Virus record (IMG/VR): IMGVR_UViG_3300011115_000173
Span: 1-61,002 of that record
DNA from: a virus
Lineage: Duplodnaviria > Caudoviricetes
DNA length: 61,002 nucleotides
Strand: one strand, 5' to 3'
Shown here: positions 18,245 through 40,447 of the stretch, piece by piece
Layout of the letters: every line of letters begins with the position of its first letter
How positions within the stretch are numbered: position 1 is the stretch's first letter
The notes under the pieces: model-generated
Databases searched by the model: none
Told to the model about the DNA's origin: nothing
The model's input: the letters and a program-made list of their open reading frames with translations, nothing else
Position numbers and translations under genes: made by a program

Positions 18245-18625
18245 ATGTCAACAGGAAACAAAGCACTGGCTTTCCAAACCCTCAACACCTTTGCAGATAG
18301 CAGGGTCGCACTCATCAGGGGGATGCGGGATGCGGGGTACACGTTGGAGACGGCACGCGGTGTCGTCATCGAATGGGCTTGCGGCAAGGTAGGTTCTGGC
18401 ATCAAGGGGTTCAAGGTCAACGAGGAGACGGGCAAGGTGTCGCTCATTACGAGCCATGCCAAGTACGAGAAAGCCAAGACCACGGTGCGCGACACCATGC
18501 TGATGCTGGCGGGGACAACCCGCCGCCAGTCCAGTAGCAAGGAGATTGACCTTGTTGCCGAGGCTCTCAAGGCATACGGCAAGCTCAATGCCGCGCAGAA
18601 GCGCAAGTTCTTGGCTTCTGTTTGA
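18245..18625 (+). CDS. First early protein, function unknown
   Basis: 126 aa; GAGG RBS; preceded by TACAAT at 18165-18170 and flanked by palindromes. Confidence 0.75.
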   Translation: MSTGNKALAFQTLNTFADSRVALIRGMRDAGYTLETARGVVIEWACGKVGSGIKGFKVNEETGKVSLITSHAKYEKAKTTVRDTMLMLAGTTRRQSSSKEIDLVAEALKAYGKLNAAQKRKFLASV

Positions 18626-18659
18626 TTCTTTCGGGTCACGGTGACCCGTTTTCTGTCCG

Positions 18660-18698
18660 CCGCCCTGCCAATCGGGTTGGGGCGGTATTCTTTTCTTT
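18660..18698 (+). terminator. Possible intrinsic terminator/attenuator
   Basis: Bulged CCGCC/GGCGG and CCAA/TTGG stem followed by TATTCTTTTCTTT. Confidence 0.45.
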
Positions 18699-18815
18699 GT
18701 CTAGTCACTGTGACCCGAAAACGGTTCTACCCTGAAGCACAGCACGCTGTGCTTTGGAGTGCGACCAGCACGACCGCACCGGACGGTATCCGGAATCCTT
18801 AATGGAGATAGCAAT

Positions 18816-19154
18816 ATGTTCAAACTCAACCTGTTTACCCGGCTAACCCACCGCTACGCGGACGGCTGGCGACACCTCGACGACGAGGAATTTACTGGCA
18901 CGGTCAAGGTGCTGGGCATCACACACGAGACCGAGGACGGGGGCTACGATGACGGCGGGACTGCCCGCTTCCGGGTGGTTGCGCCCTCGGCGCTCAAGGG
19001 AGCAGACCTGTCCCAGTCCATACGCCAGACGCTCAGCGGCAGTGGATGCCGTCATGAGTACGACTGCTGCGGCTGCGCCTCGACACGGGCTAGCGTCAAG
19101 CGTGTCAGCCCCAGAGAGTACGCCGTCAAAGTTTCCATCAGCTACAACTACTAG
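18816..19154 (+). CDS. Early hypothetical protein with Cys/His cluster
   Basis: GGAGA RBS, start MFKLN; CRHEYDCCGC motif. Confidence 0.75.
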   Translation: MFKLNLFTRLTHRYADGWRHLDDEEFTGTVKVLGITHETEDGGYDDGGTARFRVVAPSALKGADLSQSIRQTLSGSGCRHEYDCCGCASTRASVKRVSPREYAVKVSISYNY

Positions 19155-19164
19155 GAGAAATGAA

Positions 19165-19386
19165 ATGAGAAAAGCAACCCGGACAATCGTCCACGTAGGC
19201 ACTATCCAAACCCCGTCAGGGGCATGGAATCTGTACGACCAGTACCCCACCAGCAGGCGCGACTTCAAGATAACCTCGGCGGTTCCTGTGGGCAAGCCCA
19301 CGCAGGGTATCGCCTTCACTTGTGACCTCGCCTTCGAGCGCTGGCTGGCTGAGCGCATGACCCCGACTCAACGGGTGTTGTTCTGA
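19165..19386 (+). CDS. Early hypothetical protein
   Basis: AGGAGAA RBS, start MRKATRT. Confidence 0.65.
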   Translation: MRKATRTIVHVGTIQTPSGAWNLYDQYPTSRRDFKITSAVPVGKPTQGIAFTCDLAFERWLAERMTPTQRVLF

Positions 19387-19438
19387 AATTCGGGTCACGG
19401 TGACCCGCTTGCAGCGCGGAACAACCGAAATGCAAACG

Positions 19439-19820
19439 TGGTATATCAGTCGGGCAAGAAGTGTTGTATAAAAACCACTGTCCGGGGTGTCCACTGATAT
19501 ACCAGATTCATTTTCAAATACGGACACGCGCAACCCGCATGGATGCTAACGTCTGGGGGTTTAGTGTCCGTACTACTACTAAATATTTTTATTATTATAT
19601 ATAGTATAGAGAGTGTATATATTTTTTCTTCCGCGCTTGTTTTCTTTCTTGCTTTTAAGCTTTGGCTAGCTCCTTCTGTATGGCGAACAGTACTTCGGAC
19701 ACAAACTTCGAAAAGCTAGTATCCATGCGGGTTGCGCGTGTCCAAAAACGGGAATAGAATTGGTATTTAAATGGACAGTTCAAAAAAGCTGGACACTTTC
19801 GTAACCCAACTCTGGTATAT
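19439..19820. other. Candidate replication origin
   Basis: Non-coding; perfect 23-bp inverted repeat (19522-44/19721-43) around an AT-rich core; multiple GGACA/TGTCC pentamers. Confidence 0.55.
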
Positions 19821-19823
19821 AGC

Positions 19824-20663
19824 ATGAAATACCCCAAAAGCTTCTACAGTATGTCGGTCGCTGCCATGCGCAGCTACCTCATAAAACGCAACGTGCCCCC
19901 CGAGCTTATCGATGGGCTAATCACCGAAGAGCAGACCAGACGCGATGAGACGCGCCCCTTGCGCAAGAAGCGTGAGCAGCACATCAGGCTATGGCATCAG
20001 ATAATCGACCCGGCTGTGGCCGAGCTACGCAACGTGCAGCATATGCTGCGACTACCCCTGCTGTACCCTACACCTGAACGCACCGCTGCGCTCGAAGCCT
20101 ATGCCAAGGTGCTCGAACTGCTCATCGACAAGCTCAAGCAGAACGTGGACAAGATAAAGCGCAGCGATGCCGATACCGCTGACGACCTCCTGACCCCTAG
20201 CAGGCAGGCTAGCAAACCCACACGGGCATTCCCACACGGCAAGCCCAACGGGGGAACGCATTGGGTGGACTACGTGCCGCCCAACATCGTCCGGGAGATA
20301 AACGCCCTGTTCGACTCGATTCCCCGAGTAAAGGGGGTCAAGCGCAAGTACCCCTTCCTTGTCGTACTTGACCGAGCCACCAGCGCTAAACGTAGGCAAG
20401 CCCTGACCGAGCGTACACAAAACGAGCTGACCCACGTCGAGCGTCTCCTCGCGGTCGAGCTTGCCGATGCTAGGTTGACCGACACCCATGTGTTCAAGCA
20501 GCAGGAGATAGCTGACCTGCGCATCCAGATAAGCAAGATGCAGTACGCCCTGCACATCATCAGCCTGCTGCCCCCGAACGCCTTCATACCCCCGACATGG
20601 CACGGGGTGATGACCCCACGCACAGCACCGGGCGAGTTCCCTATCAACAAAGGGTCACAGTGA
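19824..20663 (+). CDS. Early hypothetical protein
   Basis: 279-aa basic helical ORF; its stop codon lies inside a palindrome copy. Confidence 0.7.
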   Translation: MKYPKSFYSMSVAAMRSYLIKRNVPPELIDGLITEEQTRRDETRPLRKKREQHIRLWHQIIDPAVAELRNVQHMLRLPLLYPTPERTAALEAYAKVLELLIDKLKQNVDKIKRSDADTADDLLTPSRQASKPTRAFPHGKPNGGTHWVDYVPPNIVREINALFDSIPRVKGVKRKYPFLVVLDRATSAKRRQALTERTQNELTHVERLLAVELADARLTDTHVFKQQEIADLRIQISKMQYALHIISLLPPNAFIPPTWHGVMTPRTAPGEFPINKGSQ

Positions 20664-20718
20664 CCCGAAACCAAAACGGTCAGCAGCCTGCCGTCTCAGG
20701 CTGCACATTAATTGGAGA
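20652..20718 (+). repeat. 67-bp palindrome-hairpin-RBS cassette, copy 1
   Basis: Identical to 21847-21913. Confidence 0.95.
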
Positions 20719-20724
20719 AGAGAA

Positions 20725-21842
20725 ATGACCAAAGAGAAACTTATCAACCGCGTTCTAGCGCAAATGCAGCGCGACATAGACGCACAAGACTGGACGGCAA
20801 TCGAGGGGCTGCTTGCCCACACACCGGAGCAGCACCTGCAAGGGTTTCTGTCTGAGTTCGAACAAGAGCGCGAGGACACGCCGCGCTCCACCTACATGTC
20901 AGCGAGGGAGTCAGCCATCGATGAGCAAGCCGCTGAGTATGACGATATGTTTGACGAACAAGGAGACGAGAAATGAAGTTTGCTTACATCCCCAAGGGGG
21001 ACTACCGCATCGGGCAGGTCTTGCAAGTACACGGCAAGCCCATGCGTGTCGAGAGCTTTTCATATACAGGCAAGAATTTTAGAGCGACAACACTTGAGGG
21101 AGCGCCGGACTTCGAGCGCATCGTCTGTATCTGCACTGATGAACAACCAATCGAGGAGAAGAGAAATGACTGACTTTGAGTTTTACTTCTTGATGATTGT
21201 CATCAAGGTATGTGCGCTTGCTGCGCTGGTCGTCCCGTATTACTTTAACTAAGGAGAAGAGAGATGCAAGTTTATTCTGTGCTGGAAGACCACCTGTGTG
21301 ACGACCACTACTACAAGGCAAGCCCCCACACTGTCGCCATCTACGCAACCAAAAAAGCCGCGCAGCTTGCCGTAGCTAGGTACAAGAGGGAATGCAAACG
21401 CAAGCTTGAGAAAAGCGAAGAAGAAAACACGCGCACCATTGACGGGGTAGTGTACCGCTCGATGGACTTGGAGTACGTGAAGTGCAACACATACAGGTAT
21501 GTGCCCAAGGATAAGTACGACTACAGCGCGATGTGGGAACGCTACCCCGAGCGCTGGATTAAAGAAGACGCAGTGATTGAATAACCAAAGGAGAACGACA
21601 TGGCACAAATGAAATTTTCAAACGGCGCTTGGCACTTGAGCGATGACTGGTCTATCGAGGACGTGCGTAACGTCATCGACTGCGACAACATCGAGGACGC
21701 AGAAGACTTCACGGACGAGGACTGCGTGAGGGTACTTGAGCTGGTGGTCGATGCGTTCGATGCCAACATCGGCGTTAACTGGGAGGTCATCGGCGCAGCC
21801 GTTGACATGGTGGTTCAAGACAAACAAAGGGCGCTGAAATAA
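20725..21842 (+). other. Five small early CDS (20725-20976, 20973-21173, 21166-21252, 21264-21584, 21600-21842)
   Basis: Each is preceded by an RBS containing GGAGA; tightly packed between the two 67-bp repeats. Confidence 0.7.
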
Positions 21843-21846
21843 AACC

Positions 21847-21913
21847 GGGTCACAGTGACCCGAAACCAAAACGGTCAGCAGCCTGCCGTCTCAGGCTGCA
21901 CATTAATTGGAGA
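21847..21913 (+). repeat. 67-bp palindrome-hairpin-RBS cassette, copy 2
   Basis: Identical to 20652-20718. Confidence 0.95.
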
Positions 21914-21919
21914 TACAAC

Positions 21920-23374
21920 ATGAACATAGGCACATCAGAAAAAGCCATCAACTTCTGCCGAGCAGCAGAAATAGTCTGGCACACTCGCATCTGGCATCAA
22001 AACCTACAGCGCAAGCACAACCTGCACCCCGCAGTCGAGTACGCCTTCAGTCTCGCTGACCCGCAGGACTGGCAGCGCTTGCTGCTGGAGTGGCCTCACG
22101 TAGCGGAGACGGATGAAACCCGCGCGGCCTACACACGGGACGAGCGGGCAGGCGTGGACGACAAGCAGACGCTGACCAGTCTGGGCAAGTACATCAAGCG
22201 GCACTGGCCGGATATGCCTGACCACATCATCCGGGACATGGTTGCCAAGTACGGCACGGCATCTAGCTTTCGCATCGAGCACACCACCGAGGCCATCGTC
22301 AGGGCGGTGTAGGAGGGGCCATCGTCTTGCATGAAGTTCGTTGACGATGATGGTAACGAAGACTACATCGATGAGCTGGGGCATCACCCCTATGAGACAT
22401 ACGCTCCGAAGTATGGCTGGCACATTGCCACACGTATCATGCACAACAGTATCGTGGGCAGGGCGCTACTCATGCAGCGCAACAATGATGCAAGCAAACC
22501 CAAGTACTTCGTGCGTACCTACAGACATCGCGATGGCGAGACGTACTCGCAGCCCGATGACGAGCTGATTCAGTGGCTCATCGGGCAGGGGTATGAGTAC
22601 CAATGCTCTTGGCTGGGTGAGCGGCTGGCGCTCCTGTCCAGCAATCACAGAAACGCGGAGTTCATTGCCCCGTACATCGACGGTGGTGCGCAGGAGGTGG
22701 ACATTGACCATGGCTACCTCAACCCATCAGACCAGCAGCGCACCAAGTGCCTCGTCATCACAAACAGCGGCGAGTATCGATGCTGCAACACGGACGGTAC
22801 GCCGGACGAGAACAACAGTTGCGCCTGTGCAGATTGCGGTAGACGTGTACATGAGGACGACACACGCCACATCGGCTACCACTCGGACAGGATGGTGGGT
22901 GACTGCTGCATCGATGCCTACACATATGTCACTGGGCGCAGGAGCAGTGAATACTACATCTCCGACGACAATGCTGTGGAGGTGGACGGCAAATACTACG
23001 ACGAAGAGTATCTTGAGGATAACGGCATCGTGACGCTGCACGATGGGAAGTATGCGCTGGCTGACAACTCGGTGTATGTCGAGAGCAAGTCAGATTTCTA
23101 CCTACTTGATGACTGCGTGTGCCTACCCGATGGCGAGTACGAGGTAGCCGAGGACTGCGTGGAGCTGCACGATGGTAACTGGGCGCTGATTGATGACTGC
23201 GTGGAGCTAGCCAACGGTTGGTGGGTGCTGGAGGAGGATGCGTGGGAGTGTGCCGGGTCAGGCAAGTGGTATCTCAAGGACGAGGAGCTGGCGGTGCTCG
23301 TCAACGGTGAGCTTTACCACGCGGCCTATGCTCCCAAAAATACAATTGAAGTAACCAAGGAAGTATCATGCTAA
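21920..23374 (+). pseudogene. Early gene interrupted by one in-frame TAG (or two adjacent CDS)
   Basis: ORFs 21920-22312 and 22331-23374 are in the same frame, joined by RAV*EGPSSCMK; C-terminal CxxC and CVxLxDGxW/Y repeats. Confidence 0.55.
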
Positions 23375-24495
23375 ACAAGAAGACGATTCTCTACAAGACG
23401 CTGGCGCGTGCGCTCTCCATGAAGCGGCCACACGCAACGGCATCGACACGGGCATTCACGGACTGGCTGCATACGCACCTGCCCCGTCTCCCACACATTG
23501 CGGTCAGCTATGACGCGGTGGGTAACCTGCACGTTGATGCAAGGCAAGACCTGCTCAGCCGCACGCTGTTCGTAGCGCACGTTGACACGGTGCATCGGGA
23601 GGAGGGGTCAAACCGTTTCAGGAAGACGCGGGGTATGTGGTATGCCGATGGTGCGCCCCTTGGCGCTGATGATGGTGCGGGATGCGCATTACTTATGCAC
23701 TTGATTCATGCGCAAGTGCCGGGGTATTACATCTTCACGCAGGGCGAGGAGAAGGGGGGTATCGGTGCCAAGTACCTTGCCGACCATAGCAAGGAGCTGC
23801 TGGCTCAGTTCGACCGTGCCATTGCGTTCGACAGGCGGGGCATCGACAGCATCATCACGCATCAGGGCTGGGGTAGGTGCTGCTCGGATGACTTCGCTGC
23901 TGCGCTGTCCGACACGATGTGCGCTGACGAGGTGCTGATGTATCTGGGCGATGACACCGGGGTGTACACCGACACTGCCGAGTTTGTTGACATCATCCCC
24001 GAATGCACGAACATCAGCGTGGGCTACGACCACGAGCACTCAGACCGCGAGACGCTGGACTTGCACCACTTCAAAGCGCTGGCTGCTGCGGTGGTACGCA
24101 TCAAGTGGGACGAGCTGCCTACGGTACGTGACCCGGCTGTTGTGGAAGCGCCCAAGCACATCGACTGGCTCGGTGCGTACAAGACGCAGGCCAGCCCATT
24201 GTCAACCAAGTGGGACGGTGTGTGGGTCGATGATGAAGACGATGAGTACGATGCCACTACCCACAGCCTCATGGTGATGGACTGCATTGACGATGCGCTG
24301 CGCGGTATGTACCACGACTTGCTTGCGATGATTGCCCACACAGCGTACCCAGAAGACCCGGAGTTTGCGCTGCGGTTCTTGAACAAGCGGCTGCTGACTG
24401 ACGAGGTGCTTGAGAAAGCGCTGGACGACTGCGCTGTTTACGATGCCGATACTGTGCTGCTGTCCCTGTTCGATGCAGCGCACTGCGAGGTCTGA
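23368..24495 (+). CDS. Zn-dependent exopeptidase-fold protein (M28/M20-like)
   Basis: AHVDTVH, LGADDGAG, GEEKGGIG, AFDRRG, TDT and GYDHEH metal-ligand pattern. Confidence 0.8.
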   Translation: MLNKKTILYKTLARALSMKRPHATASTRAFTDWLHTHLPRLPHIAVSYDAVGNLHVDARQDLLSRTLFVAHVDTVHREEGSNRFRKTRGMWYADGAPLGADDGAGCALLMHLIHAQVPGYYIFTQGEEKGGIGAKYLADHSKELLAQFDRAIAFDRRGIDSIITHQGWGRCCSDDFAAALSDTMCADEVLMYLGDDTGVYTDTAEFVDIIPECTNISVGYDHEHSDRETLDLHHFKALAAAVVRIKWDELPTVRDPAVVEAPKHIDWLGAYKTQASPLSTKWDGVWVDDEDDEYDATTHSLMVMDCIDDALRGMYHDLLAMIAHTAYPEDPEFALRFLNKRLLTDEVLEKALDDCAVYDADTVLLSLFDAAHCEV

Positions 24496-24524
24496 CTTTG
24501 GATATCGGTATTCACCGTTGGAAA

Positions 24525-24567
24525 CGGTTTGCAGCCTGCCGTCTCAGGCTGCGCATTAATTGGAGAA
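24525..24567 (+). repeat. 43-bp hairpin-RBS cassette, copy 3
   Basis: Identical to 24847-24889; shares the GCAGCCTGCCGTCTCAGGCTGC..ATTAATTGGAGA core with the 67-bp repeat. Confidence 0.95.
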
Positions 24568-24572
24568 ACAAC

Positions 24573-24839
24573 ATGACTATTAAATTGAGAAAAGCAAAAG
24601 AGACCGCAATCAACCCAGACCACATGCCGAAGGACACACACTTCTACGCAGCCAGCGTAGCGGACTGGGCGACAACGAACGATACGCGTGACTTGCGTGC
24701 GCTCATCAAGCTGATGGAGAAGTTCGGCTACTCATACAACTTGTGGCTCGTGCCCCTGCCGTTTAACGCGGACTACGACATCAAGATGTACCAGCCCCAA
24801 GTTAAAGGGGTGCAGTGGCTGGGTTACTACAAGGTATAG
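24573..24839 (+). CDS. Early hypothetical protein
   Basis: Start MTIKLRK after the cassette RBS; bounded by two 43-bp repeats. Confidence 0.7.
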   Translation: MTIKLRKAKETAINPDHMPKDTHFYAASVADWATTNDTRDLRALIKLMEKFGYSYNLWLVPLPFNADYDIKMYQPQVKGVQWLGYYKV

Positions 24840-24846
24840 AGGTTAT

Positions 24847-24889
24847 CGGTTTGCAGCCTGCCGTCTCAGGCTGCGCATTAATTGGAGAA
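24847..24889 (+). repeat. 43-bp hairpin-RBS cassette, copy 4
   Basis: Identical to 24525-24567. Confidence 0.95.
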
Positions 24890-24893
24890 GTAA

Positions 24894-26574
24894 ATGAAAA
24901 CAGTAACGATAGGCTTTATGCGCGAGGACGGGGACATTCAAGTCCTTGCCACGCTGAACAACAACGACGACACCACAGACGAGGTGCATTTCAGACTGTT
25001 TGTTGCGGTCGTCAAATCAAATTGGCAGCGGCTCTCAGGAGAGAACGTCGAAGTGTTCGAGCGCCAAGATGCGCCGGACTATGTAACACCAGAAGGAGAA
25101 AGCAAAGTGAACGATATGAACGAAGACCAAACGCTCAAGGTAGCGCTCTTGATGGAGAGGGTAGGCGGCAGCTTCGCTGCGTCGATAGCTAAAGCATGGA
25201 TAGTGGGGGACAGCAGCAACAAACGACGGGTGTATGCCGCGTTCCCGGAACTGTTCGAGAAGTATGCGGCGTGGGTAAAGGAGGAGATTTGAAATGACTA
25301 TGCTCACACAACCAAACCAAATCGCACTGTTCCGCTTGATGACACTACGCGGTATGCTTTCTCTGGAGGTCAGAGGCATGACCCGCAGGGGTCGTTCGGC
25401 GTACGCCATCATCAACTCCTTGTTGGAGCTGAAGGATAAGAAAGCATGGGCGATGGTTCATCCATCGTTCGTCACATGGGCTCGCGAGAACCAGTACATG
25501 TTTGCTGGCCTCAAGGGATAAACCGACAATTTAAAGGATTAAAACCATGACTTACGATAAATTAATTACTTATTACGCTAATCAACGCACGCGCTTGCTG
25601 CGCGAATTACTGAGTCAAGATTACGGCAAATACCGCATCACGCGAAACAACGAAATTTACGTTTACGGAAAAATGCCGGGCAGTATTGTGATCGGCTGGC
25701 GGTTGCTGGGCACGCGCCGGGAAGTTGAAAACAATTATCAACTTTAAGTACTAACATGAGCAACAAGCACAGCTCGTACACCCCGGCAGAACGAGCTGGT
25801 GACCATGCGTTTGCGTACGACAGCAAAGACGTAGGGCGCAAGTTCTGGCTTGAGGTCGTGCAGATAATCCGCAAAACAGAGAAAGGAAACTGAAATGAAA
25901 ACGTACCAAGTAGAACTCAAGCGCGTCAGCTACGTGACCATGACCGTGGAGGCAGAGACCGAGGACGCAGCCGAGGATGCGGCGTGGGACGAACTTGCAT
26001 CAGACGGGAGCTGGAACGACAGCAATGCAAGTTGGACAGTAGAAAGTATTGAGGAGGATTCAAAATGAACGCACTTGACTACTGCCAACACGAGGGGCAA
26101 TACGCATGGTGGGAACACGATGCGCAAGGCATACCGCTATGCAAGGTGTGTGAGCTATGTGCTGCGCACAAGCTCAGCAAGTATCGGCCCGAGATTCTTG
26201 AGGGCTACGACCAGAGCGATGTAGATGAACCAATCGAGGAGAACTGAAATGAAACTGAAACCAGTAGAAGTTGTCGAGCGGGTAGTGCTGCTGCTTGCCA
26301 TGATTGTCGTAGCGCTTGACCTCTTAGTGTGGAGGCCGTGATGGATATCAACACCAAGCAAGGCATGGCTGCGGCCAAGGCATGGACGGAGCAGCTACTC
26401 AGTACGCTCAACGATGGGGGGACGTGGGCAGTGCCCCGGTCTGGCACCATCATTCGTTTCGACAAGGCGAACAAGAAGGCGCTGGTTATCCACCAGATGT
26501 CCCCGGACATATCCATAGAGCGCGTGCTGGAGGCTATGGGGTGGGAAATTACTTACAAAGATAGTGAGCACTAA
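24894..26574 (+). other. Eight small early CDS (24894-25292, 25294-25521, 25547-25747, 25756-25893, 25895-26068, 26065-26247, 26249-26341, 26341-26574)
   Basis: Head-to-tail ORFs, most with an RBS; three read directly from sequence because they fall below the ORF-track size cutoff. Confidence 0.65.
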
Positions 26575-26654: not shown

Positions 26655-29538
26655 ATGACTATGTTCAATGAGTTCAAACGAATGTTCAAGACCCCTACGC
26701 CTATGCAGATGGCAGTGGCAGAGCTTGCCGATGTTGAGCTGGAGCTGCTCAAGGCAGAGACCTACGTGGAGTACGCCAACAGCATCGTGATGTACAACAC
26801 TGCCCGAGCCAAGCGCCTGCGTGCCTACATCGACGCACAGAACCGCACACAGGAGCAACAGCATGACGACCTATGAGTGGGACTGCGAGCTGCATACCGA
26901 GGGTGAGTTAAAGGATAGTGAGGTGCTATCGCACAGCTACCTCACCGACTACAGGCGCGTCAAGGAATTCATCGACGCAGCGGTGCCAGACGAGGGCTGC
27001 GAGTTTGTGGCTGTGCTTGTTCGGACTGACGACGACAACAAAGCGTGGGCTTACGTTCAGGACGGGCAGCTACCCAAGTTTTTTCTTGACGCATACAACA
27101 GCGAGTACCGCAAGGTGCCGAAGAAGTTTCACGCCGAGGTAGCCAGAGTTGAAGGAGAAAAGAAGTGCTGATGCAAATCATTGACCTTACGTTTTTATTT
27201 TTTGCACTGTCGGGGCTGGCGTTTTGGATAGCGTTGGTATGCCTTTGTGTTTATATGTGGAGGAATGAACCATGAACAAAGAAATCAAAGAACAATGGAT
27301 TGCCGCACTGACAAGCGGTAAGTACAAGCAAGGCATAGGTCAGCTACGCAGTGGCAACAAGTTTTGCTGTCTTGGGGTGCTGTGCAATTTACACGCGCAA
27401 GCGCATCCAGAGATTGCTGAGAAACAAACAAGACCGGGAAAGTACATGGGCGAAGACTCTTTCTTGCCAAATGAGGTTATGGAGTGGGCGGGATTAGATA
27501 GTGATGATGGTGGATATGTTGTGTGCGATGAGAACGTGACATTATTGGCTGAAAGAAACGATGACGGTTTTTCATTCCGCAAGATTGCCAAAATTATTGG
27601 GGAGAAGTTTTGATGACACACACAGAAGACATTATCCGCATGGCGCGTGAGGCTGGCATTCAAGATGCACATTCCCGCGACCCCCACACAGGTGTTATGG
27701 CGCAACTTCAACGCTTTGCCGCCCTTGTTGCAGCGGACGAGCGCGAGGCTTGTGCGAAGCTGGCAGACCTTGCAGAGCCGTATCAGACGGCTGATTTAAT
27801 CCGAGCAAGGGGGCAAGCATGAACAAGGAACGGAGCGCATATCTACACATCATCACTTTGCCATTTGTTATTTCAGCGGCATTTGAATTTTTACCTGCGT
27901 GGCTGTATTGGCCTATTGCTGTGATTTGCGGCATTGCGTGGTTCGGTGCTTTTGTAAATTTGTCAGAGGTAAACCATGACTAAAGACGAAGCATTGAAGC
28001 AAGCTGTTTATGGGCTGGAAAGAATACTGGGCACGTTTGAAAAAAACGGCAAAGTTGTAATGTCGTCAATGATTCGCAATGAGTTGTTTGCAGAAATAAG
28101 TTTGCTTTTGAAGAAAGCTAAAAAAGCCTTGGCACAGCCAAAGGAGAACATATGACTAAAGAAGTATTGGAGCTGGCGCTTGAGGCGTTGGAAGTTTACT
28201 GGGGCAAGGCAGAACATCGTCGTACCAAAGAAGATGAAAGCAAAGCGGTAGAAGCCATTACCGCTATCAAAGAAGCCTTGGCACAGCCAGTGCAGGAGCC
28301 TGTGGCGATGAAGTTCAAAATCTACCTGCCCGTGAAGCATCAAATCAACCACGCAAACTTGCCTTGGGTGTATGACCAAGACCGTTCAACTGGAAGTGTT
28401 GCAAGCATGTGGGTTACGCCTGTGGCAACACTTCCACCACAACACAAGGAGACAAAATGACATGGGGTCAGACTGTCGCGTTCGTATTGTTCTTATATGT
28501 TTTCTTTATTGCTTTGACGGAGGGCTTTGATGACTAAGAAGGGAGACAACGCTGACTTGCTGTGCCAAGACTGCTATGTCCCATTGTTCCGATGGTTCTT
28601 GTCGCGTGTGGATTGGGTGAGGATACTCAAGACGCAAGGCGACGAACCGCTACGGAAAGAAATACAAACCGCAAAAAGTGAAAGGGTCACAAATGATTGA
28701 AGTATCTATATCGGAGATTGTTCTGTTCGCATGGGCATCACCTGACATTTGGAATGACCCTGTGTATATAAAGAAGGAGAACAAATGACCTACGAAGAAT
28801 TTTTAAAATTTGTGCCGCGCAAGTGTATGTACGAAACCATCTATGAAGATAGTAATGGGCATACGCTTCTTGTGATTAAGCTGCTTGATGCCTACGGTAT
28901 GGTGAACAAAGCCCAGCGCGAATGGGTAGGGCTGACGGAGGAGGATAAATCCGCCATCTTGCAACATAAGTGGTGGAACTTTGAAGATGAGTTTGACCTA
29001 GACGGATTACTGAAATTGGTTGAACAACGGTTGAGGAGCAAGAACACATGAACTGGGACGAATACAACATCTTATTCCACAAGTGCAACCTAAACCTTGT
29101 GGCGTTTAAACGGCTGATGGACTGCGACCAAGAAGTGTTAAAGCTGGTGAACGCCGCAATAGAAACAAAGCGCCCGTGGGTAGGGCTGACGGAGGAGGAA
29201 TTAAAACCGTTGTGTGACGAATGGCGAGTTGTCTACGGCGGGTGGACCGAGGACTTTGCAAAAGCCATCGAAGAAAAATTAAGGAGTAAGAACACATGAC
29301 TGATAAGAAACCACCAAACGTCTTTGATTGGCGGCGTACACCGAAAGACAGCATTGTGAGAGCAATAAGCGAAACAGCGCAGCGCAGCGCCAGCGCTACA
29401 AAAGTTGTTGAGAGGCACCGCGCCAAGGACCCAAACTACGGCAAGATTTCAAAGCTATCGAAGCCCCATGAGGGGGGCTTACTTCAACCAAGGCCGTTCA
29501 CGGTATACAGCAAAGTAAAAACGACGAAAGGAAGTTGA
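26655..29538 (+). other. Cluster of small middle CDS (e.g. 26655-26876, 26863-27171, 27272-27613, 27610-27822, 27819-27983, 27976-28155, 28152-28460, 28785-29051, 29048-29299, 29296-29538)
   Basis: Mostly ATGA-coupled ORFs; recurrent ALAQP and WVGLTEE peptide modules; several short hydrophobic ORFs. Confidence 0.65.
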
Positions 29539-32633: not shown

Positions 32634-32639
32634 GGAGAA

Positions 32640-32969
32640 GTGATGGAAAAGAAAGCAGTAAGACATCCGATACCGCGCAGGATGCGCATCGGCAAGAAAA
32701 TGTACTCAGTTGAGATTGTGGAGGCCATGCTTGAGAAGCGCCGTAAGGGCACCATCAACTACACGGCGCAGACAATCAGGCTGGGGCAGCGCAGCAACGT
32801 GACGAACAAGGCGTTCCAACCAGAGCAATTGCAGGAGACTTTCTGGCACGAAGTTATCCACGGCATCCTGTACGACATGGGACGCAGCACACTGAACCGG
32901 GACGAGCGCTTCGTCAGCGAGTTCGCATACCGACTGACCAAGGCAATTAACTCAGCGAGGTTTGAATGA
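32640..32969 (+). CDS. Small HExxH metallopeptidase-like protein
   Basis: ETFWHEVIHGIL...DERFV. Confidence 0.6.
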   Translation: MMEKKAVRHPIPRRMRIGKKMYSVEIVEAMLEKRRKGTINYTAQTIRLGQRSNVTNKAFQPEQLQETFWHEVIHGILYDMGRSTLNRDERFVSEFAYRLTKAINSARFE

Positions 32970-33637: not shown

Positions 33638-33640
33638 ATC

Positions 33641-33886
33641 ATGGCACAACCAAGCAGCAAACGCGATTACAAAAAAGAGTACGCCGAGTATCACGGCCAA
33701 CCCAAACAAGTCGCCAACCGTGCGGAGCGCGTCAAAGCGCGGCGCATCATGGAGAAAACGGGCGAGGCAACTAAGGGGGATGGCAAAGATGTTGACCACA
33801 TCAAGCCCCTCAAGAGCGGCGGCACTTCGGCAAAGAGCAACCTGCGAATGCAGAGCATTGCAAAGAACCGCGCCAGCTCAAAATAA
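33641..33886 (+). CDS. Small HNH endonuclease-like protein
   Basis: DVDHIKPLKSGG....NLR......NR. Confidence 0.75.
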   Translation: MAQPSSKRDYKKEYAEYHGQPKQVANRAERVKARRIMEKTGEATKGDGKDVDHIKPLKSGGTSAKSNLRMQSIAKNRASSK

Positions 33887-33898
33887 TATGGAGACGTA

Positions 33899-35461
33899 AT
33901 GGAAATCATTGAAAACAAGGCACTACTTTTAAGAACGCGCAGTCCAGATAAATACAAGGTTATTCCGAGAAGCAAGATAGTCGAAGAGCATGAAGATGGG
34001 TCAAGTTCAGTAGCAGTTTTCTGGGGGTTGGATGAGGTCAGGGTACTCAAGAACTTAGGTGTCAAGAACATACCCTCGCCCATTACGCGCAACTACACAT
34101 GGCCCGGACGTTACAAGCCGATGGCGCACCAGATTGAAACGGCATCGTTCCTGACGCTGCACCGCAAGGCGTTTGTGTTCAGCGAACCCGGCACAGGCAA
34201 GACGCTCAGTGCGCTGTGGGCAGCAGACTACTTGATGCAGCGCGGTGAGGTGCGGCGTGTTCTCGTACTGTGCCCACTGTCCATCATGCAGTCGGCGTGG
34301 ATGGGCGACATCAGCAACAGCGTTATCCATCGTTCAGCCATCGTTGCCCACCATCCGCAAGCATCGCGGCGCATCGAGATGATTCAGAAGAACTACGAGA
34401 TTGTCATCACCAACTACGAGGGTCTGAACCTTATTGCCAGCGAAGTGGTTGCCAACGGGAAGTTTGATTTGGTTATCGTGGACGAGGCGAACTCTTACAA
34501 GACCGTGAGCACCAAGCGCTGGAAGTCCCTATCAACAGTTATCAAGCCCCAGACGTTTTTGTGGATGATGACCGGAACCCCGGCATCGCAGTCTCCAGTG
34601 GACGCATACGGGCTGGCTAAGCTGGTGAACCCAGAGGGCGTGCCAAAGTTCTTTACCGCATGGCGCGACAAGGTGATGAACAAAATCACTACGTTCAAGT
34701 GGGCACCGAAGACCGAGGCCAAGCAGTTGGTACACACGGCGCTGCAACCCGCAATCAGGTTCACAAAAGCCCAGTGCCTAGACCTACCGCCAGTCGTCAC
34801 CATCACGCGAGAAGTGGCGCTGACACCGCAGCAAGCCAAGTACTACAACCAGCTCAAAGACCAGATGATGATTTATGCGGCAGGCGAGACAATCAGCGCG
34901 GTCAATGCCGCAGCTAGCGTGTCCAAGCTGCTTCAGATAAGTTGCGGTAACGCATACACCGATGACCACGAAGTCGTTGAGTTCGACGCATCACCAAGGC
35001 TCAGCGTGCTGGAAGAAATACTTGAAGAGACAGACCGCAAGGTTTTAATCTTCGCTTTGTTCCGCTCCAGCATCGACCTGATACACACGCACTTGCTCAA
35101 AAAGGGAATCAGCGCGGAGTGTATTCACGGCGGCGTTACGCCCCCAAAGCGTTCAGATATTATTCGGCGCTTTCAAAACGAAGCAGACCCCAGAGTGCTG
35201 GTGATGCAGCCACAAGCTTCGGCACACGGGATTACCCTAACTGCTGCGGACACGGTTGTGTTCTACGGACCATTGATGTCTGTTGAGCAGTATGTGCAGT
35301 GCATAGCACGAGCTGACAGGAAGGGTCAGGACTCAGACAAGGTGACCGTCATCCACATCGAGGGTAGCCCCATCGAGAAAAGGATGTTCAAAGCCTTGCA
35401 AACGAATGTGAGTAGTCACTCACTTTTGACTGAGATGTTCAACATGGAAATAAAAAAGTAA
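33899..35461 (+). CDS. SNF2-family (SF2) helicase
   Basis: PGTGKT, IVDEA, MTGTP, HGITLT, Q...RADRKGQ. Confidence 0.9.
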   Translation: MEIIENKALLLRTRSPDKYKVIPRSKIVEEHEDGSSSVAVFWGLDEVRVLKNLGVKNIPSPITRNYTWPGRYKPMAHQIETASFLTLHRKAFVFSEPGTGKTLSALWAADYLMQRGEVRRVLVLCPLSIMQSAWMGDISNSVIHRSAIVAHHPQASRRIEMIQKNYEIVITNYEGLNLIASEVVANGKFDLVIVDEANSYKTVSTKRWKSLSTVIKPQTFLWMMTGTPASQSPVDAYGLAKLVNPEGVPKFFTAWRDKVMNKITTFKWAPKTEAKQLVHTALQPAIRFTKAQCLDLPPVVTITREVALTPQQAKYYNQLKDQMMIYAAGETISAVNAAASVSKLLQISCGNAYTDDHEVVEFDASPRLSVLEEILEETDRKVLIFALFRSSIDLIHTHLLKKGISAECIHGGVTPPKRSDIIRRFQNEADPRVLVMQPQASAHGITLTAADTVVFYGPLMSVEQYVQCIARADRKGQDSDKVTVIHIEGSPIEKRMFKALQTNVSSHSLLTEMFNMEIKK

Positions 35462-35466
35462 AGGAG

Positions 35467-35509
35467 TTGCAAAAACAGAATTCGCATGTAAACTGTCCAA
35501 CCTTAGACA
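35467..35509 (+). promoter_or_regulatory. Sigma70-type promoter overlapped by operator-like site 3
   Basis: TTGCAA-16-TAAACT, with TGTCCA-ACCT-TAGACA (35494-35509) covering the start region. Confidence 0.6.
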
Positions 35510-35528
35510 AATAATACAGGAGAAGTTA

Positions 35529-35933
35529 ATGACCACAGAAGTTATCCCCCTCGACAAGTTAGCGAAGGTCTATCGAAAGATTCGCAGCGAAATCGAAACG
35601 CTGACCAGAGAGTACGACACGCAAGTGGAGTTGCTCAAGGCCACGCAAACCGACATCAAGCACGCAATGAAAGACCAGATGCAAGCGCTTGGTGTCACCT
35701 CAGTCAACACGCCGCAAGGCACAGTTGTCTTGTCGATCAAAACACGCTACTCAACATCGGACTGGGATTCGTTCAAGACCTTTGTGATGCAGCATGAAGC
35801 GCTCGACCTTTTTGAGAAACGAATTGCCCAATCCAACATGAAGCAGTTTCTCGAAGAAAACCCCGGCGTTCTGCCGCCCGGACTTAACTCCAATGCAGAG
35901 TTCGATATCAGTGTAAGAAAACCATCCAACTAA
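35529..35933 (+). CDS. Replication-module coiled-coil protein
   Basis: N-terminal coiled coil, TPQGTV, DWDSF, LPPGL. Confidence 0.7.
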   Translation: MTTEVIPLDKLAKVYRKIRSEIETLTREYDTQVELLKATQTDIKHAMKDQMQALGVTSVNTPQGTVVLSIKTRYSTSDWDSFKTFVMQHEALDLFEKRIAQSNMKQFLEENPGVLPPGLNSNAEFDISVRKPSN

Positions 35934-35944
35934 GGAAAACCAAA

Positions 35945-36931
35945 ATGAGTAACGTAGCTCTTTTCAACCCCGCTAATGTCCCCGCCTTTGCACGCAAAGC
36001 TGAGATGTCGGATATCGCCAAAGCCCTTGCAGGCGGTGGTGCTGGTGCCAGCGGTCACCGTGTTTCAATCAAAGGCGGCGTGTTCCGTCTGGTTGCTGGT
36101 GGCAAAGAAGTCGCCGCGATTGACGAGCGCTTTCTTGATGTTGTCATCGTCAAAGCCGCACCGAAGATTGCCCGTGTGTTCTACGCAGCCAAGTACGACA
36201 AAGACGCGTCTGCCGCAGCGCCTGATTGCCAATCCAATGATGGTGACAAGCCTGACCCAAGCAGCAAGAACAAGCAGTCCGAGACGTGCGCCAGTTGCCC
36301 GAACAACGTAGCGGGTTCTGGTCAGGGTAATAGCCGTGCCTGCCGTTACCAGCAGCGCTTGGCTGTGACTTTAGCCAACGATATCGAAGGCAATGTGATG
36401 CAGTTGACTTTGCCAGCACAGTCTATCTTCGGCAGGGAAGAAGGCGACAACCGTCCGCTGCAAGCGTACGCTCGTTGGTTGGTTGCACAAGGCGTTGACC
36501 CCAGCACCGTGGTGACCCGCATGAAGTTCGACACTGCCAGCGAGTCGCCCAAGTTGTTCTTCAAAGCAATGCGCTGGTTGACCGATGACGAGTTTGCTGA
36601 AGCCACCGCACAGGGCAGCACCGAAGCCGCCAAGAAGGCCATCACGTCTGACTCAGGCAGCATGGACATGGGTAAGCCAGCAGACGCGCTCAAGGGCGCA
36701 GCACCTAAAGCCAAGGCCAAGCCAATGGGTGACCTCATGAATGAGGAAGACGCACCTGCGTACGAACCCATCGCGGCAAAAGCAAAAGCCAAGGCCAAGC
36801 CAGCCCCTGTGGTCGAGGAAGACGAAGAAGCGGAAGAGCCAGTCGTCAAGAAGGCACCAGCGGCAAAGCCAACGGCTGTACCCGGCAAGAAGGCGCTGGC
36901 TGATGTCGTCGCTGACTGGGATGACGAGTAA
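35945..36931 (+). CDS. Putative single-stranded DNA-binding/annealing protein
   Basis: Cys cluster (CQS...CASCP...AC); A/K/E-rich linker and acidic-aromatic C-terminus DWDDE; replication context. Confidence 0.6.
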   Translation: MSNVALFNPANVPAFARKAEMSDIAKALAGGGAGASGHRVSIKGGVFRLVAGGKEVAAIDERFLDVVIVKAAPKIARVFYAAKYDKDASAAAPDCQSNDGDKPDPSSKNKQSETCASCPNNVAGSGQGNSRACRYQQRLAVTLANDIEGNVMQLTLPAQSIFGREEGDNRPLQAYARWLVAQGVDPSTVVTRMKFDTASESPKLFFKAMRWLTDDEFAEATAQGSTEAAKKAITSDSGSMDMGKPADALKGAAPKAKAKPMGDLMNEEDAPAYEPIAAKAKAKAKPAPVVEEDEEAEEPVVKKAPAAKPTAVPGKKALADVVADWDDE

Positions 36932-36943
36932 TTAAGTAAGTTT

Positions 36944-37051
36944 CGCTGGGCCGCAGGCAGCGGTCGCATTGCATGGGTCGGCGGTAATTTCTCGTCGTTA
37001 GACATGACACACAAATCCATGACTGCGTTTCCTGCCCTGCGTGTCCCAGCG
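36944..37051 (+). other. Long intergenic stem-loop
   Basis: Nested pairings CGCTGGG/CCCAGCG, CGCAGG/CCTGCG and CATGG/CCATG. Confidence 0.6.
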
Positions 37052-37066
37052 CCCTTTAAGACCACT

Positions 37067-37345
37067 ATGGCTTACTCACAAAAAACAATCGACATGGTTA
37101 TGCGGGCACCAAAGACTCCGGGCAATCAGCTCGGACGTTGGGCGGTGCATCACAACTTTTCTGTTGTTCGCATTTCCAAGGCGCTTGGCGTAACCCGCCA
37201 AACCGCATACAACTGGTTCGCTGGTGGAGACATCTTCGCCGCGTACGAGCACCGTGTAGAAACGATGCTCAAGTACCTTCAAAATTCACGTTCTGCCGAT
37301 GAGGCATGGGGAAAAATATGCAAGCATTACGGCCTTCAGCCTTGA
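37067..37345 (+). CDS. Cro/XRE-like HTH protein
   Basis: SVVRISKALGVTRQTAYNWFAG helix-turn-helix. Confidence 0.75.
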   Translation: MAYSQKTIDMVMRAPKTPGNQLGRWAVHHNFSVVRISKALGVTRQTAYNWFAGGDIFAAYEHRVETMLKYLQNSRSADEAWGKICKHYGLQP

Positions 37346-37500
37346 GCAACCGCGAACTGCTCTTGGCTTGCGACAACGCATGGACTTCGGCGGGTCTGCC
37401 CCTTGACCTCCAGTTTGAGTTGTACTCACGCTTTCGCAACCTCGCTCCTGTAGACGCGCACCCACAACGCGACGAAAAGCAACTCGACCTTTTCATGTAA
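37318..37500 (+). CDS. Small protein with C-terminal QLDLF beta-clamp-binding-like motif
   Basis: Ends KQLDLFM; lies directly before the primase gene. Confidence 0.55.
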   Translation: MQALRPSALSNRELLLACDNAWTSAGLPLDLQFELYSRFRNLAPVDAHPQRDEKQLDLFM

Positions 37501-37513
37501 CCCCAAGGACTCT

Positions 37514-40447
37514 ATGAACCCGCTTGAATTCCTTGCGGTTATTCTGCCGTCCCCGGCATCTGGGGTTTACTGTGCGGCGGAACTAAGCACAAAAAAGAAG
37601 GAGCATCTGTATGTTGAAAACATGGAGGACATTTACCCTGCCGTAGACGGCTGGGTTGAAGCTAAGCAGGACGCTTACTTCGCTTTGGCTACGTTTAAAA
37701 GCGTAGGCAAACGCACTGCGGAGAACGCCGCCTGCATGAAAGCCTTGTTCATTGACATGGACGGCTACGCTTCCAAGAAGCAAGCAGCACTGGCGCTCGG
37801 TGCGTTCCTTGCCGATACTGGCTTGGACGCGCTGGGTGCTCCGTGGATTGTGGCCTCCGGCGGGGGTCTGCACTCCTACTGGCCTCTCACCGAGGACACG
37901 GACGTGGCGGTGTGGAAGTCTACCGCCGAGAACTTCAAGCGCCTGTGTAAGCAGCAAAAGCTGAACATCGACATGACGGTGACAGCAGACGCAGCGCGGG
38001 TACTGCGGATTCCCGGTACGTACAACTTCAAGAAAAACAAAGACGGCTCGTGGAAGTACGGTGAACCCAAGCAGGTAACGCTCCTGACAGAAGGGGACAC
38101 ATTCGACTTCGACACCATCAGTCATGCCATCGCAGCCAAGCTGACCACAATCGCTCCAGTAGCGGCAACGTCTGCGTTGAATCTGCCGGGTAAGCGCCCA
38201 GATGCAGCGCCTGTAGTGCCGACCACGATGGCTGTGTCCAAGCTGTTCGAGAACAGCACGACCAAGTTTGGCACGATCTTCTTGAAGACCAAGAAGGGGG
38301 TCGGCTGCGCCCAGCTCAAGCATTTTGTTGAGAACGCTGAAGACGATGGCATGGAGCCGCTGTGGCGGGGCTGGCTGAGTATTGCGCAGAAGTGTACGGA
38401 CGGGGAGAAGGCAAGCGTTTGGCTAAGCGGGCTGCATCCCTACGACGAGAACCGGATGCGCGAGAAGCAGGCGCAGATTAAAGGCCCGTACCCGTGCGTC
38501 AAGTTTGAGAGCGAGAACCCCGGCGTGTGCGGCGACTGTCCGCACTTCGGCAAGATAACCAACCCACTGGCACTGGGGCGGGAGATTGCAGTCGAGACCG
38601 CTGAGAAAGAAATCGAAATCATTGTGCCTTCGGACAGTCCCAGCATCGCCCCCGAAGTTAAGAAGCTGCTGCGCCCAACCCCTCCGCGTGGGTTTGGTTA
38701 CGGTAGCAAGGGCGGTGTATTTTCAGAAAAATCTATGGAGGATGCAGAGGGCAAAACAACGAAGAAACAAGTCATGTTGTTGCCTTACGATTTGTTTGTC
38801 GTGGATATTTTGAACAGCAACGGTGACCACACGGTTTACATGTTGGCATTGCGTCCAGAAGGTCCGGCAACAGTCACTATCCCGCAAAGAGCGGTAGTTA
38901 GTAAAGACGAGACAGTCAAAGCGCTGGCTCAACAAAACATCATCGCCGCTTTCGGCGCTGGTAACGATAAAAACCTTTTTGAATATGTTAGGGCATGTGT
39001 GGAACAAGCAAGTACAGGCAAGGCAGCCGTTAAAGTGCCATCAAACTACGGCTGGCAAGAAGACGATACGTTCGTCTTTGCTGGCAAAATCTATAGCAAG
39101 ACAGGAGCGCCAGTCTCCGTACCTATGGCCGGGTTGGAAAACCTTGTGGCTAATACCAAGCCAACAGGAACCATCGAGGCATGGCGTGCGTTTGTCAACC
39201 TCCTCATCCACAAGAAGATGTACGCTCACTTGGCGGTCTTGCTTGCCGGGGCTGGAGCACCGCTGATGCGCTTTACAGGCATCTACGGCATGACGTACCA
39301 CTGCGGCTCCACTGAGTCAGGCACAGGCAAGACGCTGGCGCTTGAGGCAGCAGCCTCGGTATGGGGTCACCCTACGCACTACCGCACAGGTAAGGGCACA
39401 TCGCCTGTAGCCATGCAGCAGCGCCTCGGCCTGCTCAACAGCAACCCGCTGATTACAGACGAGATAACCAGCAAGAACCGCAACAACTTCGAATGGTTCC
39501 CTGAGTTTCTGCTGGACATGACCGAAGGCCGGGGCAAGGAGCGCATGGAGTCCGGCTCCAACAAAGAGCGCCTGAACCTGTCTACGTGGATGACCGTTGC
39601 CATCATGTCGTCTAACACCCACGCTGTTGATATGCTGACCGGGGGACGCACCCACTCGTCCGAGGGCGAGATGCGCCGCTTGCTGGAGTTCATCATGGAC
39701 CAGCCGCTGACGTGGGAGCCGCATGAGATTGAGATCGTTAAGTCGTTGCAGCACAACTACGCTGTTGCTGGGCACATGCTGGTCGAGTACATGGCTAAGA
39801 ACGTGGACTTGCTCAAGACGCTGGTGCCTGAGATTGTGGCGAACATGTACAAGGAGTTCAACGCGACCAATGATGAGCGCTTCTGGATGGCTGGGTTGGC
39901 TGAGCTGGTCGGCGCAGGGGTGCTTATGTCCAACGCCCACGCCGGGGTTATTGACATCCCGATGGGCAAGATTATCGAGTTCCTGCACGGCATCGTCACA
40001 GGTATGCGCAACAACATCAAGGGCAACGCTCGTAGTGCCGAAGACGTACTGAACGCATACACCCGTGAGCACTACGGTCACTTCATTGTTATCCGCCACA
40101 TTGAGGGCAACCGGGTGCTGGCTGAGCTGGGCAACGGCAAAGAGATCGATGACTCCACCACTAGGTCGCGTATCATGGGGCGCATTGAGCACGGCGCAAC
40201 GCCGGGGTACATCGACTACTTCATTGAGCAGAGTATGCTCAAGGCGTGCTGCGCCAACATGAGCTTTGGCTACACGGACTTCAAGCGCCAGCTTGGGGAG
40301 CTGTTCAAGGTGTCTGAGATAACCAAGAAGGACATGACGGCTAAGACCCGTGGCCCTCAGATGCGCGTGTCCGTGCTGAAGATTTCACGCCTTATCACCG
40401 AGAAGGACAATGAGCTACTCAATTCGGTTCCCGTGGGACAAGACTGA
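37514..40447 (+). CDS. Primase-helicase fusion (AEP/RepB-like primase plus DUF927-type helicase)
   Basis: FIDMD, SGGGLHSYW, RVLRIPGTYN; CxxC; Walker A SGTGKT and ITDE. Confidence 0.85.
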   Translation: MNPLEFLAVILPSPASGVYCAAELSTKKKEHLYVENMEDIYPAVDGWVEAKQDAYFALATFKSVGKRTAENAACMKALFIDMDGYASKKQAALALGAFLADTGLDALGAPWIVASGGGLHSYWPLTEDTDVAVWKSTAENFKRLCKQQKLNIDMTVTADAARVLRIPGTYNFKKNKDGSWKYGEPKQVTLLTEGDTFDFDTISHAIAAKLTTIAPVAATSALNLPGKRPDAAPVVPTTMAVSKLFENSTTKFGTIFLKTKKGVGCAQLKHFVENAEDDGMEPLWRGWLSIAQKCTDGEKASVWLSGLHPYDENRMREKQAQIKGPYPCVKFESENPGVCGDCPHFGKITNPLALGREIAVETAEKEIEIIVPSDSPSIAPEVKKLLRPTPPRGFGYGSKGGVFSEKSMEDAEGKTTKKQVMLLPYDLFVVDILNSNGDHTVYMLALRPEGPATVTIPQRAVVSKDETVKALAQQNIIAAFGAGNDKNLFEYVRACVEQASTGKAAVKVPSNYGWQEDDTFVFAGKIYSKTGAPVSVPMAGLENLVANTKPTGTIEAWRAFVNLLIHKKMYAHLAVLLAGAGAPLMRFTGIYGMTYHCGSTESGTGKTLALEAAASVWGHPTHYRTGKGTSPVAMQQRLGLLNSNPLITDEITSKNRNNFEWFPEFLLDMTEGRGKERMESGSNKERLNLSTWMTVAIMSSNTHAVDMLTGGRTHSSEGEMRRLLEFIMDQPLTWEPHEIEIVKSLQHNYAVAGHMLVEYMAKNVDLLKTLVPEIVANMYKEFNATNDERFWMAGLAELVGAGVLMSNAHAGVIDIPMGKIIEFLHGIVTGMRNNIKGNARSAEDVLNAYTREHYGHFIVIRHIEGNRVLAELGNGKEIDDSTTRSRIMGRIEHGATPGYIDYFIEQSMLKACCANMSFGYTDFKRQLGELFKVSEITKKDMTAKTRGPQMRVSVLKISRLITEKDNELLNSVPVGQD

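Follow-up and report, generated by a model that had tools for sequence, protein, structure and literature searches.

Early and late genes of an uncultured phage and of its relatives carry different Shine-Dalgarno variants

Do the early and late genes of one phage carry different ribosome-binding sites (RBSs), and would such a difference call for a dedicated regulator? The question is raised by the IMG/VR virus record IMGVR_UViG_3300011115_000173, a single phage contig of 61,002 bases that was analysed in its entirety and is called the window below, in which a plus-strand early or replication arm lies between two minus-strand late arms. The original prediction held that early genes favour the Shine-Dalgarno (SD) variant GGAGAA and late genes AAGGAG[C/T] or AAGGA[A/C/T], and took the early variant either for the target side of a candidate small RNA (sRNA) or for the site of an RBS-specific protein or ribonuclease (RNase), as with RegB of phage T4. 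The asymmetry, with GGAGAA typical of early SDs and (T)AAGGAG[C/T] of late ones, is real and is conserved in the window phage and its uncultured relatives. As to its origin, ordinary SD sites with genome-specific, homogenised early start cassettes are the explanation favoured here, with modest confidence.

All strings quoted in the original prediction, namely 16 starts preceded by GGAGAA, five by GGAGA, nine late strings and four exceptions, were found at their places. Since a choice of starts by eye may favour those with a good RBS, the comparison was also made with RBS-blind gene models, obtained with our own caller by a Markov score, where starts were set by a longest-ORF or a minimum-overlap rule (ORF, open reading frame); two ORFs inside the open-ended gene 3-1139 were replaced by that gene, and the ORFs 18057-18185 and 40410-40595, largely intergenic and situated at the ends of the early arm, were removed. 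In the 20 nucleotides (nt) before the start (-20..-1), GGAGAA was found for 12/46 early and 0/44 late genes under the longest-ORF rule (Fisher's exact test, p=2e-4) and for 12/46 and 2/44 under the minimum-overlap rule (p=0.007), while the curated starts gave 16/46 and 2/42 (p=5e-4), so that the early and late SDs differ with either kind of start. With the curated starts, GGAG 3-12 nt upstream is likewise more frequent early (28/46) than late (8/42; p=8e-5) and is directly followed by a purine in 25/28 early and 3/8 late cases (p=0.006); AA after GGAG, at 16/28 early against 2/8 late, gives p=0.23 in what is, for the window alone, a weak conditional test. AAGGAG as such shows no arm difference (11/46 early and 5/44 late, RBS-blind), and any GGAG, GAGG or AGGA core is present for 36/46 early and 18/44 late genes. 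Since the arms do not differ in AAGGAG, the contrast consists of AA as opposed to C or T after the core, together with more SDs in the early arm. The extraction of upstream sequences and the Fisher test that had been suggested as a check have thus borne out the early enrichment of GGAGAA, but not a preference of either arm for AAGGAG itself. Over both strands of the window GGAGAA occurs 38 times, against 21.75 +/- 4.1 expected from 100 dinucleotide shuffles, none of which reaches 38; on the sense strand there are 25 copies in the 22.5-kilobase (kb) early arm and seven in the 38.4-kb late arms, the base composition of the two being nearly equal.

At 15 of the 16 early GGAGAA sites the hexamer is separated from the start by 3-6 nt. 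At site 32634 the quoted GTG 32640 abuts the hexamer with no spacer, and an ATG that lies 3 nt further on, at 32643, is the likelier start; the quoted TTG start 27610 stands 3 nt ahead of ATG 27613. Very small ORFs follow two of the 16 starts, 21166-21252 (28 amino acids, aa) and 26249-26341 (30 aa), and have a common 25-nt upstream repeat. With a third ORF, 27165-27275 (36 aa), they make up a set of three, each with a well-spaced GGAGAA, that may be genuine micro-genes. No SD stands before gene 19824-20663 (279 aa), whose ATG lies 2 nt after the end of TGGTATATA (19800-19826); its translation may therefore start on a leaderless message.

The same RBS-blind pipeline was applied to 160 IMG/VR loci around homologues of the polymerase and the portal, where GGAGAA precedes 313/1242 and 66/228 genes in the two early-strand sets and 54/677 late-strand genes, and AAGGAG[C/T] is found for 5% and 4% of the early-strand sets and 14% of the late-strand one. 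Five complete relatives (G001-G005) are available, with polymerases 68-74% and capsids 83-88% identical. When these are pooled with the window, the asymmetry is repeated, GGAGAA standing before 51/215 early and 4/227 late genes, and it is significant in each of the six complete genomes (p 0.0009 to 0.044). Purines and pyrimidines follow GGAG at 81:28 early and 14:39 late in these genomes; A comes next at 9/53 late sites, and at 0/15 in G003, where the 15 are distinct late genes. Orthologous sites recur in the late counts over relatives, which are therefore not independent, and single-genome counts are fairer. The orthologues of late AAGGAG sites retain C or T after GGAG. In two distant phages the trend is weaker and in the same direction: Pag-Yong1 has a purine after GGAG at 13/13 early and 6/8 late sites, and DSL-LC04 has A at 4/5 early sites and A 4, G 3 and T 5 at late ones. 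Of the 44 early genes, only about 10 recur as homologues throughout the five complete relatives, the accessory early genes turning over fast, and the early dialect persists despite a near-complete difference of these accessory genes between relatives. Of the unrelated phages used as controls, T7 shows the split only in part and lambda not at all. Among the annotated starts of T7, GGAG is followed by a purine at 44/46 sites (A 12 and G 12 of 25 early and middle; A 4 and G 16 of 21 late), and lambda shows no early/late asymmetry after GGAG. Because both controls lack it, the late pyrimidine after GGAG is a trait of the window's phage family and not of phages generally.

The CCUCC region of the bacterial 16S rRNA 3' tail pairs with a purine-rich SD core, and an AGGAG or AAGGAG core is present in both arms, as judged with a general bacterial 16S tail standing in for that of the host. 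Among unique upstream sequences from relatives, 473/1011 early and 207/569 late ones contain GGAG, at a distance from the start whose mode is 7 nt in both arms (mainly 5-8 nt early and 5-7 nt late). The proportion of A is 0.80 early and 0.72 late at -1, 0.56 and 0.54 at -2, and 0.40 and 0.39 over -8..-1; because the A content of the spacers is equal, the difference is position-specific. Cluster-weighted logos of intergenic SDs read A-GGAG-A(0.65)-A(0.61)-a/g early and T-A-A-GGAG-T(0.46)/C(0.27) late, where TAA is the stop codon of the preceding gene, and the information after GGAG ends at about +3. The arm difference is confined to intergenic SDs, in which AA follows GGAG in 122/208 early and 6/120 late cases, whereas SDs within an upstream coding region show none (103/220 early, 24/58 late). 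Coding constraint was rejected as a cause, since the difference sits in intergenic and not in coding-region SDs, as was arm composition, since arms and spacers are nearly equal in this respect. Nor did a trade-off emerge between how far the SD extends 5' and which base follows GGAG; because the arms differ within one 5'-extension class, the difference does not compensate for helix length. Neither arm often has a G directly after GGAG (0.08-0.11), a base that would extend the pairing to the 16S tail. No depletion of GGAGAA, which would be a sign of nuclease avoidance, has been detected in late coding regions (observed/expected 1.01 late, 0.89 early). The folds of early start regions are slightly less stable in 6/6 genomes, significantly so in two. 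The arm difference extends to the second codon in the six complete genomes, where late genes often start with ATG-GCN (G 0.37 at +4, C 0.51 at +5) and early genes with ATG-A.. (A 0.56 at +4).

A share of the early SDs belongs to repeats. Five repeat families of the window span an RBS, namely D1 with four copies, D9 with three, D17, D18 and D19. The 83-nt element of D1 (Table 1) is ordered as palindrome, hairpin and SD, and accounts for three of the 16 GGAGAA SDs and for one GGAGAT SD. Its hairpin, with a conserved CGGTT 5' of the stem, is predicted to fold in 4/4 copies with the SD left unpaired. Further copies occur in relatives, and compensatory changes are seen in the stem (GCGGTCTG/CAGACCGC in locus L153, GTGGTGTG/CACACCGC in locus L085) around a fixed CCGTCT loop. 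A processing site, a protein-binding site and an antitermination site are possibilities for the element. A sigma-70 promoter scan returned three promoter-like sites in 10 kb, where 6.4 would be expected, and no site at the cassettes, with a consensus that may not be that of the host. The relatives have long cassettes of their own, GGAGAACCAACC-ATG in G003 and AAGGAGAAGAACACATGA in G001 and G005. The five nt after GGAG at early sites are more alike within genomes than between them (identity 0.407 vs 0.362; permutation p<=0.003), an effect that is not found at late sites.

Tandem arrays of small early paralogues are present at 28785-29538 in the window, 16275-18452 in G001 and 62660-64215 in G005, with junctions of the form AAGGAG(A/T/C)AAGAACACATGA and a stop codon overlapping the start of the next gene. 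Six copies of the palindrome GGGTCAC-N-GTGACCC lie within the initial 3.7 kb of the early arm, for the most part directly after stop codons, and the one at 18632 alone is followed by a T run on the plus strand; these palindromes could be operator sites or attenuators. The idea that the GGGTCACnGTGACCC palindromes serve as hairpin promoters for a virion RNA polymerase was dropped, the 3021-aa protein showing LPD38 only and no polymerase family.

Table 1. Positions of the arms, SD sites and repeated or non-coding elements in the window.
Feature	Position	Strand	Remarks
Early/replication arm	18245..40447	+	~46 genes: DNA polymerase, helicase, exonuclease, primase, many small ORFs without assigned function (PHROG and Pfam scans)
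Late/structural arm A	1..17871	-	Terminase, portal, scaffold-like protein, capsid, tail genes (PHROG scan; capsid relatives)
Late arm B	40564..61002	-	3021-aa LPD38 polyvalent virion protein, ejection protein, lysis genes, tail-fibre-like genes (PHROG/Pfam scans)
Early GGAGAA SDs (16)	19154 (= 19154..19159, gene 19165), 20714, 21155, 21253, 21590, 24562, 24884, 26238, 26645, 27601, 28143, 28776, 30376, 30651, 32634, 35519	+	Hexamer starts
Capsid SD AAGGAG	10427..10432	-	AAGGAGCT
Scaffold-like gene 12465 SD AAGGAG	12472-12477	-	Capsid type
Gene 11067 SD AAGGAG	11074-11079	-	AAGGAGTG
Gene 5219 SD AAGGAG	5226-5231	-	AAGGAGTC
Late-arm GGAGAA exception	11537..11542	-	Within upstream coding region, before start 11531
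Second late-arm GGAGAA exception	58447-58452	-	Before start 58440
83-nt repeated intergenic element	20652-20734, 21847-21929, 24500-24582, 24822-24904	+	Before unrelated early genes 20725, 21920, 24573, 24894
Conserved hairpin GCAGCCTG-CCGTCT-CAGGCTGC	20683..20704	+	9 nt upstream of SD; repeat family D1
Further hairpin copies	21878-21899, 24531-24552, 24853-24874	+	Repeat family D1
GGGTCAC-N-GTGACCC palindromes	18209-18225, 18632-18648, 18704-18720, 19391-19407, 20652-20666, 21847-21863		
Non-coding stretch, 437 nt	19387..19823	+	Pyrimidine-rich tract; sole intergenic anti-SD-like site, CTCCTT at 19670

The simplest objection is that chance, gene-calling bias or base composition yields an apparent asymmetry, for which the weak window-only conditional test and the relatedness of several early sites by duplication could be cited. 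RBS-blind starts still leave p at 2e-4 to 0.007, however, the shuffles never reach the observed GGAGAA count, arms and spacers are nearly equal in composition, and the result is replicated in five further complete genomes and in the cluster-weighted logos; this replication in relatives has already refuted an account that was in any case hardly credible. The reading of early RBSs as the target side of an sRNA, according to which a phage-encoded anti-RBS sRNA pairs with the early GGAGAA sites, has fared no better. The 437-nt non-coding stretch of the early arm, with its pyrimidine-rich tract and one CTCCTT, speaks in its favour, and this stretch belongs to no Rfam family (there are no matches in the whole window at gathering thresholds), which is compatible with a new RNA. 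Nonetheless, TTCTCC, the complement of GGAGAA, is found in no intergenic region on either strand, and the CTCCTT, which lies within AGCTCCTT, is complementary to the late variant AAGGAGCT of the capsid and scaffold SDs and not to GGAGAA. None of 32 RNAduplex tests (16 intergenic regions, both strands) favours the 46 early over the 42 late start regions, and most intergenic regions pair better with the late ones. Apart from one 22-nt match of the divergent region in G002 (E 0.003), the non-coding regions of the window have no homologue in G001-G005, Pag-Yong1 or DSL-LC04, and yet the asymmetry persists in the five complete relatives and, as a weaker trend, in the two distant phages. Persistence of the asymmetry in relatives without such an RNA had been named in advance as the outcome that would speak against an sRNA; since relatives without these non-coding regions do keep it, this reading is close to refuted and is given very little credence.

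The comparison with RegB is of a different kind. In T4, RegB cleaves early mRNA between the G and the A of GGAG and is stimulated by S1. According to two studies on T4, the enzyme cuts GGAG in early start regions and its full site reads GGAGRAYARAA (R, purine; Y, pyrimidine), in which C is hardly ever found at positions 5-6; all late and most middle GGAG sites are resistant to it (PMC1702504, PMC3014915). By analogy, a non-homologous RegB analogue or a RegA-type translational repressor, possibly with S1, might recognise single-stranded GGAG-A-A-purine and shut off or degrade early messages, from which late messages would escape through the C or T after GGAG. The published site (PMC1702504, PMC3014915) lends itself to this analogy, positions 5-6 being mostly A at early intergenic sites and the first of them mostly T or C at late ones, and the avoidance of A at late sites is what such a system predicts. 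The asymmetry holds for all six complete genomes individually and for the 160 loci but is absent from lambda, the SD is left unpaired beside a conserved hairpin, and the homogenisation of early spacers genome by genome would also fit co-evolution with a genome-specific factor. On the other hand, no RegB homologue was found, either by a Pfam scan of 45 proteins at E<=0.01 (the 3021-aa virion protein, 41 early-arm and three late-arm proteins) or by a six-frame search of the whole contig with PF10715 at E<=1, which gave 0 hits. No RNase, RelE/YoeB-like or other RNA-binding family has been detected among the early proteins in PHROGs, Pfam and NCBIfam, and the early genes conserved across relatives are of replication or DNA-nuclease types. 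The conserved unassigned gene 32643 faintly resembles an SprT/M78-type peptidase; the ESM Atlas returned viral hypothetical clusters only, with faint SprT/M78 peptidase leads. Furthermore, the information that ends at about +3 is nothing like the 11-nt T4 site, AA is as frequent in late as in early SDs within coding regions (24/58 late), and GGAGAA is not depleted inside late genes. The proposal of an RBS-specific protein or RNase agrees with the data in its site logic and finds no RegB homologue or RNase family to go with it in these searches; it is the main rival explanation and is considered unlikely. The wider form of the same idea, in which an uncultured aquatic phage family of ~61-66 kb, unrelated to T4, would run a T4-RegB-like temporal switch through a non-homologous factor, with early messages marked by GGAG-A-A-R, late ones protected by a pyrimidine and cassettes co-evolved with the factor, is equally doubtful.

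Ordinary SD sites with genome-specific, homogenised early start cassettes would account for most of these observations. The same host ribosome would read both arms through a common AGGAG core some 5-8 nt before the start, and the dialect around this core would differ. The early arm is pictured as a field of many small, fast-turning-over accessory genes whose start regions would be standardised, purine-rich and weakly structured (A-GGAG-A-A-R, 3-5 nt, ATG); these cassettes would spread by duplication and recombination, which would also make them uniform within each genome, and would be kept by selection for efficient initiation soon after infection, possibly helped by S1. The late arm, in turn, would hold old, vertically inherited core genes with compact junctions of a TAA stop, GGAG and a pyrimidine, in which pairing with the 16S tail would be extended on the 5' side (UAAGGAG). 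A dedicated trans-acting RNA or nuclease would not be needed. Both arms have a common core and spacing, the early arm has repeats and is homogenised in a genome-specific manner, and neither an anti-RBS RNA nor RegB is present; from these observations we infer selection on translation plus cassette spread as the cause. The related trend of T7, which is not known to have RegB, has been counted in favour of this explanation.

Several points weigh against ordinary SD sites with early cassettes. Late GGAG sites avoid A as the next base (0/15 in G003, against ~0.4 A in spacers), which cassette spread does not predict, and it is because this avoidance goes unexplained that confidence in the cassettes is held at a modest level. 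Within the AA-GGAG class, A at +1 amounts to 0.78 early and 0.09 late, and in orthologous core genes, 35529 among them, GGAGAAG is retained between variable flanks. The asymmetry is absent from lambda and so is not a universal phage property, and the split matches the T4 RegB/S1 site as defined by experiment. In addition, the late counts over relatives are non-independent.

Every call in 18245-40447 that passes a simple coding-potential model lies on the plus strand, and the late arms lie on the minus strand; about 35 small early-arm proteins have no function assigned by PHROG and Pfam scans. With the capsids of Planktothrix phage Pag-Yong1 and Pelagibacter phage HTVC023P, that of the window shares 70% and 63% identity, respectively, and the polymerase is only about 32% identical to its relatives in named phages, with 69-90% relatives in many IMG/VR contigs. 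A nucleotide search of the early arm against a phage collection gave no match, and a tRNA scan gave none either. Among public sequencing runs, 16 DNA runs and no RNA run are listed with this sequence. Both contig ends, 3-1139 and 59966-60982 on the minus strand, fall in glycine-rich tail-fibre-like paralogues (phrog_2295), do not overlap, and would be joined out of frame in a circle; the contig break probably fell in a repeated tail-fibre-like gene. The non-coding stretch of the early arm contains 75-nt imperfect inverted repeats (19488-19562 and 19703-19777, 72% complementary) that flank a very AT-rich core and the pyrimidine-rich tract. Beyond the closest relatives (L153, L095) this stretch is not conserved, G001-G005 lacking a homologue; it could be a replication origin or a structured RNA.

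A class-specific RBS flavour offers an inexpensive way of telling temporal gene classes apart in uncultured phages from sequence alone; in six complete genomes it separates early from late genes without expression data. If nothing but standardised cassettes is involved, the pattern is a record of the packaging and shuffling of accessory early genes. If a RegB-like switch were present, SD-based shut-off of early mRNA would have evolved beyond the T4 group by means of another protein, and the motif pair GGAGAA and GGAGCT would be defined for direct testing.

An SD dialect of temporal classes is already known from T4, and for the phage group of the window none was found described in literature searches that were not aimed at this group. 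The likeness to the T4 RegB/S1 site lies in early GGAG SDs followed by A-rich sequence and late GGAG sites without it, which here take the form of GGAGAA(R) and GGAG[C/T]. The two differ in that position 7 is A or G here and a pyrimidine in T4, positions 8-9 carry almost no information, and no RegB-family gene is present; the phage itself is unrelated to T4, with 61 kb and a capsid like those of Pag-Yong1 and HTVC023P. With sRNA regulators that pair with RBSs, the system has in common only the idea of a shared RBS motif as target, since the window holds no complementary RNA candidate and the asymmetry persists where its non-coding regions are absent. It resembles T7 and canonical SDs in the AGGAG core 5-8 nt before the start in both arms, and T7 also mixes GGAGA and GGAGG before early and middle genes while its late genes favour the longer-pairing form. 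Late genes here, by contrast, lengthen the helix at the 5' end of the SD (TAAGGAG) and place a pyrimidine after GGAG at 39/53 sites over six genomes, and G in that place is rare in both arms (0.08-0.11), whereas in T7 it is the commonest base at this position. In T4-type phages, regulatory cassettes known as promoter-early stem-loops flank early ORFs. The element described here differs from these in that no sigma-70-type promoter was detected in it with a consensus that may not be that of the host, and in its fixed CCGTCT loop on a covarying stem; what it has in common with them is a repeated hairpin with a standard start region, placed before unrelated small early genes.

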